Positions 1,243-24,650 of a DNA stretch of 32,000 nt are shown here, piece by piece. Under the pieces are notes generated by a model. The model was not told the origin of the DNA. It saw nothing but the letters and a program-made list of their open reading frames with translations, and searched no databases. The stretch's first letter is position 1; each line of letters opens with the position of its first letter. This DNA is from Alkalilimnicola ehrlichii MLHE-1 (lineage in GTDB: Bacteria > Pseudomonadota > Gammaproteobacteria > Nitrococcales > Halorhodospiraceae). The translations under genes and the position numbers were made by a program. Where the stretch lies: positions 330,001-362,000 of the forward strand of contig NC_008340.1 in NCBI RefSeq assembly GCF_000014785.1. Reading direction: 5' to 3'.

Positions 1243-2904
1243 ATGAGCGACAGTGCGGTACCGCGACTGACCGAGTCCGCCGCCTGGCAGGCGCTCGGGG
1301 CACGGGCCGGTGATCTGCGTGGCTGGCGGCCGCCGCTGAAGGGCACGCAGGGCGAGCAGCGTTTCCGTCGTTTCAGCCTGCAGTTGGACGGGCTGTTTTT
1401 CGACTACGCCCGCCAGCCGGTGGATGAGACCACCCGCGATCTGCTGTTGGAGCTGGCCCGCGAGCGGCGGCTTCCGGAGCGGATCCGGGCCCTGTTCGCG
1501 GGGGAGCCGGTGAATGCCACCGAGGGCCGGCCGGCGCTGCACACCCTGCTGCGCGCGCCTGAGGGGTCGGCCTTCCCGGTACACGGGGCCGATGCCCGGG
1601 CGGCGGTGCGCACCGAGCTGGCGCGCATGACCCGTTTCGTCGACCGTGTGCACCGGGGTCTGGTCCACGGCTGGGACGACCGGCCCTTCACCGATGTGGT
1701 CAACCTGGGTATCGGCGGCTCGGAGCTTGGCGCGGCGATGGCGGTCCAGGCGCTGTCGCGGTTCCATCAGCGCGAGGCGCCGCGGATGCATTTCGCCTCC
1801 GGCTCCGACGGGGTGCAGCTGGAGGATCTGATCCGGCGGCTCGACCCGGCCACCACGCTTTTCATCGTGGCCTCCAAGTCCTTCACCACCAGCGAGACCC
1901 TGCTCAATGCCCGGGCGGCCCTGCACTGGCTGGAGGCCTGCGCACCGGAGGGGGCGCACCTGGCCCGCCACTGGGTGGGGGTGTCGGCCAATGAGGAGGG
2001 GATGGCCCGTTTCGGTATCCCGGAGGAGCAGCGGTTCCGCATTTGGGACTGGGTTGGGGGGCGCTATTCCGTGGCCTCTGCCATGGGACTGCCGGTGGCG
2101 CTCGCGGTGGGCATGCGGCATTTTCAGGATTTCCTCGCCGGCATGCACGCCATGGACCGCCATTTCGAGGAGGCGCCGCTGCCGGTGAATCTGCCGGTGA
2201 TCGCCGGTCTGCTCCAGGTCTGGTCGATCAACTTCCTCGGTGCCCACACCCACTGTGTGTTGCCTTACCACCAGCGCCTGGCCCGTCTGCCCGCCTGGCT
2301 GCAGCAGTTGGAGATGGAGAGCCTGGGCAAGCGGGTGGACAGCGGCGGTCGGCCGGTGGACTACCACACCGGCGCTGTGGTGTTCGGCGAGACGGGCTTC
2401 CACGCCCAGCACTCCTTTGCCCAGCTGCTGTTCCAGGGCAGTTGCCCGGTGGCCGTGGATTTCCTGATCAGCCGGGAGGATGCCTCCGGTCTTGCGGTCT
2501 TTCACGGTGTCGCCCAGGCGCAGGCGTTGGGGCAGGGCCGGGCGCTGATGACCGGGCGTGATCGTGCCACTCTGGCCGGTGAGATGATCCGCGCCGGGGT
2601 GGACGAAGAGCAGCGCCAGGCCCTATTGGCGCACCGGGAGATACCCGGTGGCCGGCCCAGTAACACGCTGGTCTTCCCCCGTCTGGATCCCTACAACCTG
2701 GGGCGCCTGATCGCCTTCTACGAGCACCGCACCTTCGTGCAGGCGTCGATCTGGGATATCAATCCCTTTGATCAGTGGGGGGTGGAGCTGGGCAAGCAAC
2801 TGACCCGGGCGCTGTTGCCGGCGGTGACCGGTGAGACGGACCCGGCGGCGGATCTCGACGCGAGTTCTTGCGGCCTGATCCGTATCCTGCGCGGGGCGGA
2901 TTAA
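1243..2904 (+). CDS. pgi: glucose-6-phosphate isomerase
   Basis: The ATG at 1243 (MSDSAVPRLTES...) lies 7 nt after the ugd stop. The longer track ORF from 1138 overlaps ugd. PGI motifs are present: NLGIGGSELG, FIVASKSFTTSETL, GGRYSVASAMG and EMESLGK. The stop is TAA at 2902-2904. Confidence 0.9.
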   Translation: MSDSAVPRLTESAAWQALGARAGDLRGWRPPLKGTQGEQRFRRFSLQLDGLFFDYARQPVDETTRDLLLELARERRLPERIRALFAGEPVNATEGRPALHTLLRAPEGSAFPVHGADARAAVRTELARMTRFVDRVHRGLVHGWDDRPFTDVVNLGIGGSELGAAMAVQALSRFHQREAPRMHFASGSDGVQLEDLIRRLDPATTLFIVASKSFTTSETLLNARAALHWLEACAPEGAHLARHWVGVSANEEGMARFGIPEEQRFRIWDWVGGRYSVASAMGLPVALAVGMRHFQDFLAGMHAMDRHFEEAPLPVNLPVIAGLLQVWSINFLGAHTHCVLPYHQRLARLPAWLQQLEMESLGKRVDSGGRPVDYHTGAVVFGETGFHAQHSFAQLLFQGSCPVAVDFLISREDASGLAVFHGVAQAQALGQGRALMTGRDRATLAGEMIRAGVDEEQRQALLAHREIPGGRPSNTLVFPRLDPYNLGRLIAFYEHRTFVQASIWDINPFDQWGVELGKQLTRALLPAVTGETDPAADLDASSCGLIRILRGAD

Positions 2905-3773
2905 ACCGGGTCGGCCAGTCCCCGTCGTCCGGCGTAGTCGCGGGCGAACTGCCAGGCCACCCGGCCGCTGCGTGAGCCCCGTCCCAGGGCGTAGCGCAGT
3001 GCCTCGGCGCGGATCTGCTCCGGGTCGTCCGCGGTCGCTCCCAGCCGTTTCAGCCAGCTGAAGACGATCTCCAGGTAGGCCTCCTGATCGAAGGGGTAGA
3101 AGGAGAGCCAGAGACCGAAGCGCTCGGAGAGTGAGATTTTTTCTTCCACCGCCTCGCCGTGGTGGATCTCTCCGTCCACCAGGCGGGTCTGTTCGTTCTC
3201 GCTGTGGTATTCCGGAAGCAGGTGCCGGCGGTTGGAGGTGGCGTAGATCAGTACGTTCTCCGGTGCCACGCTGATGGAGCCGTCCAGGGCGGCCTTGAGG
3301 GCCTTGTAGCCGGGGTCGTCGGCCTCGAAGGAGAGGTCGTCGCAGAAGAGGATGAAGCGTTCGGGGCGGTCGGCCAGTTGTTCCAGCAGCAGGGGCAGGT
3401 CGGGCAGGTGGTAGCGGTCCAGTTCCACCAGCCGCAGGCCCTGGTCGGCGTAGCGGGTGAGCAGGGCCTTGACCAGAGAGGACTTGCCGGTGCCGCGGGA
3501 GCCCCAGAGCAGGGCGTTGTTGGCGGGCAATTGCCGGAGGAATTGGCGGGTGTTGCGATCGAGGGCGGTCCGCTGGCGGTCGATCCCCTTGAGCGCCTCC
3601 GGCGCGATGCGGTGGGGGTGGCGCACCGGCACTAGGCCGGCACGGTGGCCTTCGCGACTCCAGCGCAGGGCGCTCACCTGGTCCCAGGGGATGTCGGGTT
3701 GCGCCGGCAGCAGGGGTTCGAGGCGGTCGAGCAGTTGTTCCGCGCGATCCAGGAATTGCTTGAGTCGGTCCAT
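2901..3773 (-). CDS. DUF815-family AAA-type ATP-binding protein
   Basis: I chose the start at the ATG whose complement is 3771-3773 (MDRLKQFLDRAEQLL...). It is preceded by GGGAGGA 9 nt upstream on the minus strand. Walker A is GSRGTGKSSLVKA and a Walker B-like ILFCDDLSF is present. The 62-codon upstream extension in the track ORF runs through the octamer repeat and is probably not translated. Confidence 0.8.
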   Translation of the reverse strand: MDRLKQFLDRAEQLLDRLEPLLPAQPDIPWDQVSALRWSREGHRAGLVPVRHPHRIAPEALKGIDRQRTALDRNTRQFLRQLPANNALLWGSRGTGKSSLVKALLTRYADQGLRLVELDRYHLPDLPLLLEQLADRPERFILFCDDLSFEADDPGYKALKAALDGSISVAPENVLIYATSNRRHLLPEYHSENEQTRLVDGEIHHGEAVEEKISLSERFGLWLSFYPFDQEAYLEIVFSWLKRLGATADDPEQIRAEALRYALGRGSRSGRVAWQFARDYAGRRGLADPV

Positions 3774-3825
3774 GGTGTGCTGTCCTCCCGCGGCGGGTGT
3801 GTGGGAAGTTTGCCACAATTTCCGT

Positions 3826-3887
3826 GGTTGGCAGGTTGGCAGGTTGGCAGGTTGGCAGGTTGGCAGGTTGGCAGGTTGGCAGGTTGG
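3826..3887. repeat. Perfect 8-bp microsatellite (GGTTGGCA), 7 full copies plus GGTTGG
   Basis: Read directly from the sequence. Seven back-to-back GGTTGGCA units span 3826-3881, followed by GGTTGG at 3882-3887. The repeat lies 53-114 bp upstream of the DUF815 start codon. Confidence 0.97.
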
Positions 3888-3961
3888 GTAGAAGGGGTGT
3901 AGGGCAAAGGGGAGGACCGCAACATCGGGGAGGATCCGGTGGCTCGCCCCGGCCGTCACCG

Positions 3962-5094
3962 CCGCGGCTGCCCCGCCGCCCCCGTCACTGCGAGGAGGCG
4001 AAGCCGACGCGGCAGTCTACCGCCCTGGATCGCCACGGGCCTGCGGCCCTCGCGATGACGGGGGGCGCCGTCGCCCCCGTCACTGCGAGGAGGCGAAGCC
4101 GACGTGGCAGTCCACCGCTCTGGATCGCCACGGGCCTTCGGCCCTCGCGATGACGGGGGGGCGCCGTCGCCCCCGTCACTGCGAGGAGGCGAAGCCGACG
4201 TGGCAGTCTACCGCCCTGGATCGCCACGGGCCTTCGGCCCTCGCGATGACGGGGGGGCGTCGTCGCCCCCGTCACTGCGAGGAGGCGAAGCCGACGTGGC
4301 AGTCTACCGCCCTGGATCGCCACGGGCCTTCGGCCCTCGCGATGACGGGGGGGCGTCGTCGCCCCCGTCACTGCGAGGAGGCGAAGCCGACGCGGCAGTC
4401 TACCGCCCTGGATCGCCACGGGCCTTCGGCCCTCGCGATGACGGTGGGGGCGCCGCCGCCCCCGTCACTGCGAGGAGGCGAAGCCGACGCGGCAGTCTAC
4501 CGCCCTGGATCGCCACGGGCCTTCGGCCCTCGCGATGACGGTGGGGGCGCCGCCGCCCCCGTCACTGCGAGGAGGCGAAGCCGACGCGGCAGTCTACCGC
4601 CCTGGATCGCCACGGGCCGTCGGCCCTCGCGATGACGGTGGGGGCGCCGCCGCCCCCGTCACTGCGAGGAGGCGAAGCCGACGCGGCAGTCTACCGCCCT
4701 GGATCGCCACGGGCCGTCGGCCCTCGCGATGACGGTGGGGGCGCCGCCGCCCCCGTCACTGCGAGGAGGCGAAGCCGACGCGGCAGTCCACCGCCCTGGA
4801 TCGCCACGGGCCTTCGGCCCTCGCGATGACGGGGGGGCGCCGTCGCCCCCGTCACTGCGAGGAGGCGAAGCCGACGTGGCAGTCCACCGCTCTGGATCGC
4901 CACGGGCCTTCGGCCCTCGCGATGACGGTGGGGGCGCCGTCGCCCCCGTCACTGCGAGGAGGCGAAGCCGACGCGGCAGTCTACCGCCCTGGATCGCCAC
5001 GGGCCTTCGGCCCTCGCGATGACGGTGGGGAAGGCCTTCGGCCCTCGCCATGATGGGGGCGGGAAGGCATTTGACCCTCGTCATGACGGTGGGG
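3962..5094. repeat. Tandem array of 11 near-identical 95-97-bp units plus two degenerate half-units
   Basis: GTCACTGCGAGGAGGCGAAGCCGACG recurs at 3984, 4079, 4175, 4271, 4367, 4464, 4561, 4658, 4755, 4851 and 4948, giving periods of 95, 96 or 97 bp. The consensus unit is GTCACTGCGAGGAGGCGAAGCCGACGCGGCAGTCTACCGCCCTGGATCGCCACGGGCCTTCGGCCCTCGCGATGACGGTGGGGGCGCCGCCGCCCCC. Degenerate right-arm copies lie at 5031-5063 and 5064-5094. Confidence 0.97.
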
Positions 5095-5184
5095 CAAGGG
5101 GCCCCTCCCGTTGATCACGTGGGAGGGCCATGACAGCCGGTGGCCGCCGTGTTGAAATGGGTGTGGTCACGAGGAGCATCGCGA

Positions 5185-5898
5185 ATGAGTCGATATCACC
5201 CGGAAGAGCCGCGCCCCTGCGGGGCCTTTGTCACCGGTACCGATACCGGTATCGGTAAGACGGTGGTCGCCTGCGGGCTGGTGCGGGCGGCGCTGGACCG
5301 GGGGTTGGAGACGGTGGCGCTGAAGCCGGTCTCGGCGGGCTGTGAGGAGACGCCTGAGGGGCTGCGCAACGAAGACGCCGAGCTGCTTCGACGGCTGTTC
5401 GATCCGCCACTGCCCTACGACAAGGTCAACCCGGTGGCGTTGCGGGCCGCGGCGGCGCCCCACCTGGCGGCGGCGGAGGAGGGCATTCATATCCCGGTGG
5501 CGAATCTCGCCGCCCAGGCCCGTGCCTTTGCCCAGGCCTCGGACTTCGTGGTGGTGGAGGGCGCCGGGGGGTGGCGGGTGCCTCTGGATGACCACCACAC
5601 CATGGCTGATCTCGCCCTCGCCATGGATGTGCCGGTGGTGCTGGTGGTCGGTATCCGGCTCGGTTGCCTGAACCACGCGCTGCTGACCGCCGAGGCGGTG
5701 CGCCGCGACGGCCTGCCCCTGGCGGGTTGGGTGGCCAACCGCGTGGACCCGGACGATGGGCGCAGCGATGCCCAGGTGGGGGCGCTGCGCCAGCGGCTGC
5801 AGGCCCCCCTGCTGGGCGACCTGCCCTGGATGGACCGGTGGGACCCGTCGGCGGTGGCCGCCCGCCTGGACATCGAGCCCCTCCTCTCTGCCCTCTGA
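5185..5898 (+). CDS. bioD: dethiobiotin synthetase
   Basis: The ATG at 5185 (MSRYHPEE...) has GAGGAG at 5171-5176. The P-loop-like TGTDTGIGKTVVACGL and VVEGAGGWRVPL are typical of BioD. No other bio genes are in the window. Confidence 0.85.
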   Translation: MSRYHPEEPRPCGAFVTGTDTGIGKTVVACGLVRAALDRGLETVALKPVSAGCEETPEGLRNEDAELLRRLFDPPLPYDKVNPVALRAAAAPHLAAAEEGIHIPVANLAAQARAFAQASDFVVVEGAGGWRVPLDDHHTMADLALAMDVPVVLVVGIRLGCLNHALLTAEAVRRDGLPLAGWVANRVDPDDGRSDAQVGALRQRLQAPLLGDLPWMDRWDPSAVAARLDIEPLLSAL

Positions 5899-15204: not shown

Positions 15205-15277
15205 GGGAACCTCCCGGCGCCGAGCGCCTACGACCTCATGCCCTTACCGGAAAGTGTACCCCATGCGCCGGTCGGCT

Positions 15278-16165
15278 TCAGTCCCAGTCGCCGTCACCTT
15301 CGTCCCACTCCTCGTCCCATTCATCGGACCACTCGTCATCCCATTCGTCGTCCCACTCGTCGTCCCGCCCGGTCAGACGCCCCGCACGTTGCTGCTGGTA
15401 GGCCTCGCGCATGAAGACATAGGGGTCGGCCCCCGACTCTTCCATGATCCGGGTGGCGGGCAGCAGGCGGGCCCGGGTGTCGATGATGTCCACGGCGGCC
15501 AGGGTCCAGCGCACGTCGCGCTCCTGGTCTGTCCAATGGGTGGGGCCGGTATACTCCCGGGTCAGGTACTGGACGCCCAACCCCGTGGCGTCGCGGATGT
15601 TGCTGGGCCCGAGGAAGGGCAGGACCAGGTAGGGGCCGGTGTCCAGACCCCAGGTGCCCAGGGTGAGGCCAAAGTCGGTCCGCTGGCGCTCCAGGCCTAG
15701 CCCGCCGGCGACGTCGAACAGCCCCAGCAGGCCGAAGGTGGAATTGAACAGGAAGCGCAAGGTGCCCTCGGTGGCGGCCCCGGCGTTGCCCTGCAGCCCG
15801 TGGTTTACCACGTTGACCGGTTCACCCAGGTTGGCAAAGAAGTTCGTGATCCGGTTCCGTCCCGGCTCCGGCACGGCCCTGACGTAACCGCGGGCCACCG
15901 GACGGGCCACGGTGCGGTCGAAGAAGTCGTTGAAGGCGAACACCACGCGGTTGTAGCGCTCCAGCGGATCCCGGGTGCGGGGTTCGCCCTCCCAGGCGGC
16001 CCAATCCTCGTCCCAATCGGTGGCCTCGGTCGCGGTACCGGCGTCCCCGGTGGCGCCGTCGCCGGGCGCCGTGGACGCCGGCGCCGGCCCGTCCCCACCG
16101 TTGGCGCAGGCGCTGAGCAGCAGCAGGGCGGCGAGCAGGGGCAACAGTCGGGTGGGCAATCTCAT
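15278..16165 (-). CDS. mlaA: MlaA/VacJ-family outer-membrane lipoprotein with an acidic Trp-rich C-terminal tail
   Basis: The lipobox is LLLLSAC. DPLERYNRVVFAFNDFFD and NFFANLGEPV are typical of MlaA. A GTG at 16168 is an alternative start. Confidence 0.88.
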   Translation of the reverse strand: MRLPTRLLPLLAALLLLSACANGGDGPAPASTAPGDGATGDAGTATEATDWDEDWAAWEGEPRTRDPLERYNRVVFAFNDFFDRTVARPVARGYVRAVPEPGRNRITNFFANLGEPVNVVNHGLQGNAGAATEGTLRFLFNSTFGLLGLFDVAGGLGLERQRTDFGLTLGTWGLDTGPYLVLPFLGPSNIRDATGLGVQYLTREYTGPTHWTDQERDVRWTLAAVDIIDTRARLLPATRIMEESGADPYVFMREAYQQQRAGRLTGRDDEWDDEWDDEWSDEWDEEWDEGDGDWD

Positions 16166-16194
16166 CACAGCAGGGTGTCCCTATCGATCGTGGC

Positions 16195-24374: not shown

Positions 24375-24650
24375 TCAGCAGCAGCGGATGTGGTCCAGTG
24401 GGGAATGCTCCATACCCATGCGCCGGTGCCACTCGTGGAACTCCTCAATGATCAGCGGGTAGAGCTCCAGGGTGTGGTAGGAGACGGGGTTGGGCACCCC
24501 GAGCATCTCTGAAAAGCACATGAACAGGAACAGGTCGTCCTCATCCCGCAGCTCGCGGATGACCTCGGCCTCATGGCCGAGCCGCAGCATCCGGTCGTAG
24601 CGATAAAGCCAGCGGGCGATGGGGTTACGGGGTTCATTCGGGTCGCTCAT
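24375..24650 (-). CDS. small conserved-looking protein ending in Arg-Cys-Cys-stop
   Basis: The 91-aa ORF has GGGAGG 5 nt upstream of its ATG. It starts 51 nt after the cstA stop and ends 9 nt before the ArsA-like start. The C-terminus is ...LDHIRCC followed by TGA. Confidence 0.6.
   Translation of the reverse strand: MSDPNEPRNPIARWLYRYDRMLRLGHEAEVIRELRDEDDLFLFMCFSEMLGVPNPVSYHTLELYPLIIEEFHEWHRRMGMEHSPLDHIRCC

Follow-up and report, generated by a model that had tools for sequence, protein, structure and literature searches.

Introduction

Ssn proteins, a family of GIY-YIG nucleases that act site-specifically on single-stranded DNA (ssDNA), have been described by Chenal et al. (Nat Commun 2025; PMC11893778). 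Their target is a hairpin repeat called NTS (CGTCATTCCCGCGMAVGCGGGAATCYRG) or, in the wider sense, any of the Ssn-related motifs (SRM). The motif is recognised in a single orientation and the cut is made a few nucleotides upstream of it; double-stranded DNA (dsDNA) and RNA are not substrates. The bases that count most are, for cutting, the three (GTC) on the 5' side of the palindrome and, for binding, the C directly on its 3' side. The ssn genes are typically flanked by their own repeats, and the authors liken the system to insertion sequences and to the association of repetitive extragenic palindromes (REP) and bacterial interspersed mosaic elements (BIME) with REP-associated tyrosine transposases (RAYT) (PMC11893778). 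Here we analyzed a 32,000-nucleotide stretch of the genome of Alkalilimnicola ehrlichii MLHE-1 (hereafter the window, whose own positions are used throughout; G+C 67.5%), in which the divergent genes DUF815 (minus strand) and bioD (plus strand) are separated by 1.41 kb, most of it taken up by a tandem array of 11 units. Judging from sequence comparisons, we consider it reasonably probable that this array is a cluster of 22 putative Ssn sites that resembles a BIME and has been homogenised by recombination, its building block being a widespread repeat of the SRM/NTS kind.

Results

The array contains 22 predicted hairpin modules in alternating orientation

Tandem Repeats Finder (TRF) reported a single array at 3973-5030, with a period of 97, 11.0 copies, 97% matches, no indels and a score of 1941. 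Anchoring on GTCACTGCGAGG placed the 11 unit starts at 3984, 4079, 4175, 4271, 4367, 4464, 4561, 4658, 4755, 4851 and 4948 (spacing 95-97 bp), and the head-to-tail units, which are 97% identical, span 3984-5023. The initial annotation, made from the sequence alone, had described eleven units of 95-97 bp here, and this array is real; the bounds that it gave (3962-5094) also cover degenerate partial copies at either edge.

Each unit consists of a 76-bp core, composed of two inverted hairpin modules of ~33 nt, and a G+C-rich junction of 19-21 bp that occurs in several variants, for example GG(T)GGGGGCG-CCGY-CGCCCCC. The core is made up of a left arm of 35 nt (GTCACTGCGAGGAGGCGAAGCCGACGCGGCAGTCT), a central loop of 8 nt (ACCGCCCT) and a right arm of 33 nt (GGATCGCCACGGGCCTTCGGCCCTCGCGATGAC; bottom strand GTCATCGCGAGGGCCGAAGGCCCGTGGCGATCC). 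Since the right arm resembles the left one when read on the bottom strand, both arms are of one module kind in inverted orientation. From 5' to 3', the module comprises GTC, a 5-bp basal stem (ANNGC/GCNNT), an internal loop, an apical stem with a GNA-type triloop, and C. In the window, the basal stems are ACTGC/GCAGT (left) or ATCGC/GCGAT (right), and the apical hairpins, with GAA-type triloops, are GGC-GAA-GCC and GGGCC-GAA-GGCCC. All stems listed in the initial annotation (GCGG-N7-CCGC, GGGCC-N3-GGCCC and GGGGGCG-N4-CGCCCCC) were found, as were its imperfect terminal inverted repeats. The units can also be read in an alternative register, in which a 44-nt palindrome is centred on every junction and alternates with 52-nt cores.

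A covariance model of the arm (R1), built from 59 seed sequences including two window arms, matched the 32-kb window at full length exactly 22 times, 11 times on each strand, with scores of 38.9-48.5 bits and with no match outside the array. The + and - arms alternate with a period of 95-97 bp. All 22 window arms open with GTC followed by A(CT/TC)GC, and all carry C directly 3' of the palindrome (GCAGT-C, GCGAT-C). Across the 59 aligned arms, GTC is invariant, as was fixed by the pattern used to select them, and column 34 is C in 59/59, where the selection pattern permitted C or G. The array offers 11 directional putative Ssn-type hairpin sites per strand.

Covariation supports two arm hairpins per doublet

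Canonical copies of this repeat family contain four successive sites, ATTGC, GCAAT, ATTGC and GCAAT, which are compatible with one long hairpin or with two arm hairpins. In the window, mutual pairing of the termini would involve a C.A mismatch and a T.G wobble; the own stem of each arm is perfect. The terminal and inner dinucleotides of the arms covary (TT/AA, TC/GA, CT/AG and TG/CA) far above permutation expectation: 15 of the 22 non-TT arms from the protein-selected loci introduced below are fully complementary (permutation mean 1.9, maximum 7), and so are 155 of 200 in the genome set (permutation mean 68). When the two-helix structure was imposed on the 59 aligned 33-nt arms, 86.6% of cells were paired, compared with 75.1% in shuffled alignments (0/500 reached the observed value), and the covariation score was 0.300 versus 0.123 in shuffles and at most 0.167 with partners slid. 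Double changes were seen in 5/10 pairs, the shuffled mean being 5.0.

The apical stem is Watson-Crick or tandem G.A paired across the family, with several pair types, and the apical loops on the GTC-bearing strand are mostly C(GNA)G, with GAA and GCA as the commonest triloops; about two thirds to four fifths of the arms have a loop closed by C-G. C(GNA)G is a highly stable type of DNA mini-hairpin. For each window arm taken as ssDNA, minimum-energy folding predicts the module hairpin. Taken across hundreds of copies from many phyla, covariation supports two separate arm hairpins, not one long hairpin of terminal inverted repeats. The initial annotation had proposed one element with terminal inverted repeats; the inverted ends are present, and two independently folding modules appear to fit better, because the compensatory changes sit within arms and break terminus-terminus complementarity in the window. 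We have therefore replaced the single-element description by two hairpin modules.

The modules belong to a widespread repeat family

The pattern GTCAYTGCGAG-N30-60-CTCGCRATGAC matched 107 stretches of viral contigs with G+C contents from 0.37 to 0.74, and the terminus variant of the window was found in at least 120 stretches of Genome Taxonomy Database (GTDB) genomes from many phyla. Among the matches listed for this variant are Comamonadaceae, Methylocystis, Halorhodospira, Bacteroidota, Chloroflexota, Acidobacteriota, Thermoanaerobaculia, Patescibacteria, Planctomycetota (Pirellulaceae), Verrucomicrobiota and Proteobacteria. The family consensus can be written as GTCATTGCGAG-[small hairpin]-GAAGCAATCCAG-loop-CTGGATTGCTTC-[small hairpin]-CTCGCAATGAC. 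The pan-bacterial element with these two ends, to which the initial annotation had likened the arms, thus exists.

The translated window array matched only other arrays among proteins, all annotated as hypothetical. One of them, the 182-aa hypothetical protein Mlg_2297 (P0002), is from A. ehrlichii MLHE-1 itself; its units differ from those of the window, and it therefore represents a second locus. A metagenomic 'protein' of 161 aa (P0001) is an array with identical cores and other junctions. Tandem or near-tandem copies of the family were also found in other genomes: 5.2 copies of 63 bp at locus L120, 3.9 copies of 124 bp at L284 and at least six copies at the contig end of L166, with further clusters at L156, L094 and L066. 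Locus L234 has at least 12 diverged doublets that abut with a period of ~100 bp on both sides of an ssn gene; as these units are diverged, the cluster looks like repeated insertion beside existing copies and not like recent duplication. It lies at L234:1076-3230 (metagenome contig ERZ1645185 NODE-91), its TT-type and TC-type arms being on opposite strands. The expectation that such elements are normally dispersed as single copies, so that an array would be unusual, holds in part: arrays and BIME-like clusters recur, and the 11 homogeneous units of the window form the biggest array seen, most public assemblies being based on short reads that are unable to hold such arrays.

Truncated terminus copies are also found beside the elements, at 65 of 603 doublet ends (11%) compared with 10.6 in shuffles, which is a six-fold enrichment. 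These 'stutter' copies consist of the terminus and a few flanking bases and have a period of ~25-33 bp (for example at L118, L036, L094, L135, L165 and L177). They flank the window array as well (3955-3983 and 5033-5099).

Clustering of neighbouring open reading frames (ORFs) around the elements on viral contigs returned only structural genes of phages or gene transfer agents (GTA) and no enzyme or transposase family, the short-element pattern having missed the full-length form that carries a gene. No consistent direct repeats were noted at the element ends. Three other identities of the array were considered and discarded. In a CRISPR array the spacers would not be identical, as they are here; the RYYYAAC/GTTRRRY cores of integron attC sites are absent; and a repeat protein is ruled out, as the frame drifts with units of 95, 96 and 97 bp and all homologues are other arrays.

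Related arms flank GIY-YIG genes of the Ssn family

On a Limnohabitans contig (L138), the loop of an element holds a 95-aa ORF with a GIY-YIG domain (PF01541, E=8e-11). At three more fetched loci, a gene likewise lies in the loop or between two complete doublets, giving four GIY-YIG genes in total. Given that an ssn gene may lie within the loop of a doublet, the short doublets look like gene-less derivatives. An alignment of these four proteins was then used alone to fetch 80 metagenome loci (572 of 600 candidate stretches were relatives), and the 200 bp on either side of each gene were searched for the 11-nt terminal motif, one mismatch being allowed. The motif was present upstream in 61/78 and downstream in 55/67 of the protein-selected loci, where we estimate a chance level of ~4% per side. 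Two architectures recur, namely arm-gene-arm and doublet-gene-doublet. The former occurs at L138:502-786, L082:5552-5827 and about 20 of the loci L233-L312, with arms ~40-60 bp from the ORF ends.

Seven of the protein-selected loci, in which TTGCGAG-type arms are lacking, had canonical NTS-type repeats (CGTCATTCCCGCGMAGGCGGGAATCCAG) around genes whose products are 53-59% identical to the same query. Because NTS repeats flank such close homologues, the GIY-YIG proteins are members of the Ssn family. Their nearest solved structures are UPF0213 proteins, the N-terminal domain of UvrC, I-TevI and SLX1. At least 7954 database proteins match the L234 protein at E<=1e-10, mostly on very short contigs. 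Most Ssn-like proteins are on contigs of 1-3 kb, which fits assemblies that break at the flanking repeats, so that ssn loci are under-represented in assembled metagenomes. Among viral contigs, a single GIY-YIG protein query found no relatives and the four-protein alignment found one locus only. The N-terminal coding sequence of Ssn, a conserved stretch (..YIMAS.. = ..TACATCATGGCGAGC..) differs from the 5' motif of the arm, GTCANNGCGAG, by one mismatch (for example at L236:772, L240:1240 and L242:1522), which is probably a coincidence.

Relation to the NTS repeats

The repeats of this family and NTS have the same flanks: NTS reads CGTCATT-CCCGCG-MAV-GCGGG-AATCYRG and the canonical arm CGTCATT-GC...GC-AATCCAG. 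The window arms keep the GTC 5' and the C 3' of the palindrome. Both repeats are directional motifs, are present in hundreds of intergenic copies and flank single-domain GIY-YIG genes of ~94 aa, and the proteins flanked by either repeat type are >50% identical to the same query. In contrast to NTS, the hairpin of this family is two-tiered (5-bp basal stem, internal loop and apical stem with triloop) and is organised in inverted doublets of 60-92 bp, here in an 11-copy homogeneous tandem array. The published search string misses the window-type arms, which are therefore best described as a putative separate class of SRM, with two-tier hairpins arranged in inverted doublets. Repeats of this kind are already known; the array stands out by its unusual size and regularity and does not represent a novel type of element. 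When the literature was searched by repeat DNA, spurious peptide and nuclease family, nothing relevant was found except PMC11893778.

Unit variation and array dynamics

The eleven 76-bp cores differ at 5 positions, in a non-periodic and phased pattern: units 3 and 4 are identical, as are units 5, 6 and 11, units 7 and 8, and units 2 and 10. All five variable positions are in loops or at unpaired sites, leaving the stems, GTC and the 3' C untouched; the chance of missing the 36 stem positions is ~0.04 by our own calculation, which is weak evidence. It hints that the modules may still be constrained, or may simply be young. That neighbouring units are identical suggests that unequal recombination or slippage is still going on. 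As each unit is one doublet together with a join of right and left flanks, it has the signature of tandem duplication and not of repeated insertion. One doublet with its flanks would have been multiplied by tandem duplication, and homogeneity, expansion and contraction may then have come about by unequal recombination or slippage, possibly stimulated by Ssn breaks.

Short-read assemblies from other sequencing runs that encode identical DUF815 and BioD proteins break at both edges of the array. The assemblies of SRR32708590, SRR32701048 and SRR9436228 all begin at window position 5001, the first 31-mer unique to the right border; this shared contig start indicates that a repeat is present there in those genomes, as a k=31 assembly graph predicts. 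These contigs reveal a repeat, not its copy number.

The array in its genomic setting

The DUF815 gene (2901-3773, minus strand; AAA-type ATPase, PF05673), whose exact product is present on public contigs, and bioD for dethiobiotin synthase (5185-5898, plus strand; PF13500/PF01656) bound the intergenic region, as the initial annotation had stated. The bioD product shows 100% identity to BioD of A. ehrlichii MLHE-1. Directly upstream of unit 1, a degenerate partial left-terminus copy (GTCACCGCCGCGG...) with G+C-rich flank is read from the sequence at 3955-3983 (+) as a terminal stutter.

The unit 1 doublet (3984-4059, 76 bp) has its left arm at 3984-4018 (+; R1 score 39.4 bits), its central loop at 4019-4026 and its right arm at 4027-4059 (-; 47.6 bits), and is followed by the junction GGGGGGCGCCGTCGCCCCC at 4060-4078. 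The unit 2 doublet at 4079-4154 has arms at 4079-4113 (+) and 4122-4154 (-) and a junction at 4155-4174. Units 3 (4175-4250; arms 4175-4209 (+) and 4218-4250 (-); junction 4251-4270) and 4 (4271-4346; arms 4271-4305 (+) and 4314-4346 (-); junction 4347-4366) precede unit 5 (4367-4442; arms 4367-4401 (+) and 4410-4442 (-)), whose junction at 4443-4463 reads GGTGGGGGCGCCGCCGCCCCC. In unit 6 (4464-4539), the arms are at 4464-4498 (+) and 4507-4539 (-) and the junction at 4540-4560. Unit 7 (4561-4636) has arms at 4561-4595 (+) and 4604-4636 (-) and a junction at 4637-4657, and its identical neighbour, unit 8 (4658-4733), has arms at 4658-4692 (+) and 4701-4733 (-) and a junction at 4734-4754. They are followed by unit 9 (4755-4830; arms 4755-4789 (+) and 4798-4830 (-); junction 4831-4850), unit 10 (4851-4926; arms 4851-4885 (+) and 4894-4926 (-); junction 4927-4947) and the final complete unit, unit 11 (4948-5023; arms 4948-4982 (+) and 4991-5023 (-)).

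Two truncated and diverged right-arm copies follow on the minus strand, at 5033-5054 (GGCCTTCGGCCCTCGCCATGAT) and 5066-5087 (GGCATTTGACCCTCGTCATGAC). The first is a terminal stutter without the inner half of the basal stem, with a one-mismatch motif match at 5044-5054. Both lie in a period-31 row of TRF (5002-5099), and neither copy is matched by R1.

Other short repeats were observed in the window. A perfect microsatellite, (GGTTGGCA) x 7.8, lies at 3826-3887, 53 nt upstream of the DUF815 start codon (minus strand, 3773), and could be a phase-variable spacer in the promoter or leader of DUF815; short-read contigs of the same species terminate within it, at window position 3855. The Limnohabitans array in L166 is also trailed by short repeats rich in CAACC. 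Imperfect tandem repeats of 12 bp and 21 bp (TCGTCCCACTCG) are located at 15276-15366, at the 3' end of an MlaA-like ORF (15278-16168, minus strand).

Discussion

Evidence for and against a cluster of Ssn sites

The assignment of the array to the SRM is made because of the shared flanks (CGTCAtt...aaTCCAG), the linkage to genes and the homology of the proteins. Several results weigh against reading it as a cluster of Ssn sites. The assignment does not follow the own criterion of the Ssn authors: their SRM string, HGTCWYN(0-2)YYVSBRHN(0-5)WNVSBRGN(0-2)RNCYNB, finds an NTS control and misses both the arms of the window and canonical arms of the TTGCGAG type, and its sole match in the window, at 24486, is unrelated to the array. 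No GIY-YIG or Ssn homologue is encoded in the 32-kb window, which covers only part of the MLHE-1 genome, and no Alkalilimnicola name appears among the best 120 of the 7954 homologues of the L234 protein. The ssDNA stability of single arms is ordinary (-5.4 and -8.4 kcal/mol; z = +0.15 and -1.9), and the whole 76-nt doublet folds best as a single long hairpin. The arm fold is thus not favoured by thermodynamics alone, and the argument for arm hairpins rests on covariation. As for mobility, a comparison of 318 elements from all the fetched loci yielded no pair of filled and empty sites, only self-overlaps.

If the array is a cluster of Ssn sites, its modules would fold whenever the region becomes single-stranded, as in replication, recombination or incoming DNA, and a cognate Ssn would bind and cut them. 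Were the cut placed as in Neisseria, a few nucleotides upstream, the breaks would fall just 5' of GTC, in the G+C-rich junctions, on either strand. The array would then most likely be a by-product of the repeat/nuclease system, either selfish or neutral, and not a regulator of bioD or DUF815. Of the functions suggested in the initial annotation, 'protein-binding platform', here on ssDNA, and 'hypervariable VNTR' (variable number tandem repeat) would come nearest to this reading.

Alternative explanations

The array might instead be an inert VNTR, in which a dead copy was duplicated neutrally in tandem and has since been maintained by unequal crossing-over or slippage only, with no present interaction with a nuclease, for instance if ssn has been lost from the genome or was never there. 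Near-identical units including their junctions, together with identical neighbours, are what recent tandem duplication leads one to expect, and the lack of a GIY-YIG gene and of further copies outside the array in the 32 kb agrees with it. We nevertheless regard it as unlikely, since the five polymorphic sites spare the stems and GTC/C (the weak evidence given above), the same genome has a second array with array-specific variants, and both arm types retain perfect compensated stems. Comparable arrays in other sources (P0001, P0002 and P0004) also speak against mis-assembly of the copy number or of the array itself. Repeats of 97 bp at 97% identity are certainly difficult to assemble, and short-read contigs stop at both edges. 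However, the unit variants are phased in non-periodic order, and the contigs of three independent read sets end where unique 31-mers begin at the right border, indicating a repeat there; we consider the chance of an artefact to be close to negligible.

The location between divergent genes and the regular spacing of palindromes in alternating orientation, with a period of ~100 bp, recall the BIME architecture (PMC2817692, PMC3333891). They would suit a co-opted dsDNA or nucleoid element like BIME-2 of Escherichia coli, which would bind gyrase or nucleoid proteins or topologically insulate the DUF815 and bioD promoters. Such a role seems improbable, as the family is inserted in many unrelated contexts, including phage and GTA-like clusters, which argues against a locus-specific function, and a scan of 3600-5400 for sigma-70 promoters and intrinsic terminators detected none in the intergenic region. 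For the same two reasons, no sign of a regulatory role for bioD or DUF815 is seen. A multi-hairpin RNA was also envisaged in the initial annotation; if transcribed, such a structured RNA might serve as an mRNA stabiliser, a sponge or a small RNA precursor. A single unit does fold well as RNA on both strands (-55.2 and -56.4 kcal/mol; z = -2.95 and -2.19), but this explanation is unsupported and appears very improbable. No Rfam family reached the gathering score, either in the window or in 12 canonical-copy loci, and only chance-level matches of miRNA type (E>2) were obtained at E<=10; the modules are on both strands; the preference for C(GNA)G loops is on the GTC-bearing strand, this motif being stable in DNA; and the Ssn family acts on ssDNA and does not bind RNA (PMC11893778).

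Comparison with other repeat systems

The doublets and clusters resemble REP/BIME (especially BIME-2) and the REPIN-RAYT systems known from Enterobacteria and Pseudomonas in their small palindromes, alternating orientation, regular spacing and clustering. Like REPINs, they are doublets of inverted hairpins, and the two alternating unit types (here CT and TC) recall Y/Z2. A further parallel to REP/RAYT is that a nuclease gene occurs in single copy between repeats of its own and that hairpins are recognised in ssDNA. Unlike RAYTs, which are HUH Y1 transposases, the linked enzyme here is a GIY-YIG nuclease; the head is GTC(A), with no GTAG head; and the sequence of this family is conserved across phyla, whereas REPs are lineage-specific. 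Miniature inverted-repeat transposable elements (MITEs) such as Correia/NEMIS are likewise short, non-coding, intergenic and multi-copy elements with inverted ends, and in both cases there are longer relatives in which these ends enclose a gene. In the present family, no target-site duplication or filled/empty pair was found, and the selected structure is the arm hairpin, not pairing of the termini. At a smaller scale, the apical loops, mostly C(GNA)G and in the window GGC-GAA-GCC and GGGCC-GAA-GGCCC, resemble the GNA mini-hairpins of the d(GCGAAGC) type that Hirao and colleagues reportedly studied in the 1990s. Here, by contrast, the mini-hairpin is the tip of a larger recognition module, and nearest-neighbour predictions for it are ordinary.

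A further possibility, which we put forward tentatively and hold to be rather doubtful, is that the TTGCGAG-type doublets are non-autonomous, MITE- or REPIN-like derivatives of a mobile 'arm - ssn - arm' unit, representing an as yet uncharacterised class of mobile elements of prokaryotes driven by a GIY-YIG single-strand nuclease. The tandem arrays, the abutting doublets of L234 and the stutter copies would then be footprints of its activity, left when ssDNA is cut just outside GTC and a copy is made, by copy-in or mis-repair, beside an existing one. If this were true, the array would be a self-reinforcing hotspot of programmed ssDNA breaks and not a passive VNTR.

Significance

What is new here is the hairpin class missed by the published motif, its organisation in doublets and the homogeneous array of 11 units. 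For annotation, such arrays yield spurious 'hypothetical proteins' (for example Mlg_2297) and break short-read assemblies. With respect to its neighbours, nothing suggests that the array is more than an accidental neighbour of DUF815 and bioD. The description of the Ssn/NTS system dates from as recently as 2025, and the present locus and related ones extend the view beyond Neisseria, to a two-tier Ssn-linked hairpin class that escapes the published search string and yet is widespread in genomes, metagenomes and prophage-like contigs. Selection on each arm, with several compensated 'specificity' types, may provide candidate pairs of enzyme and site for the kind of ssDNA tools envisaged by Chenal et al. 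REPIN-like doublets and BIME-like clusters of up to 11 homogeneous units strengthen the parallel with REP/RAYT and, with it, the idea that Ssn loci are, or may have been, mobile.

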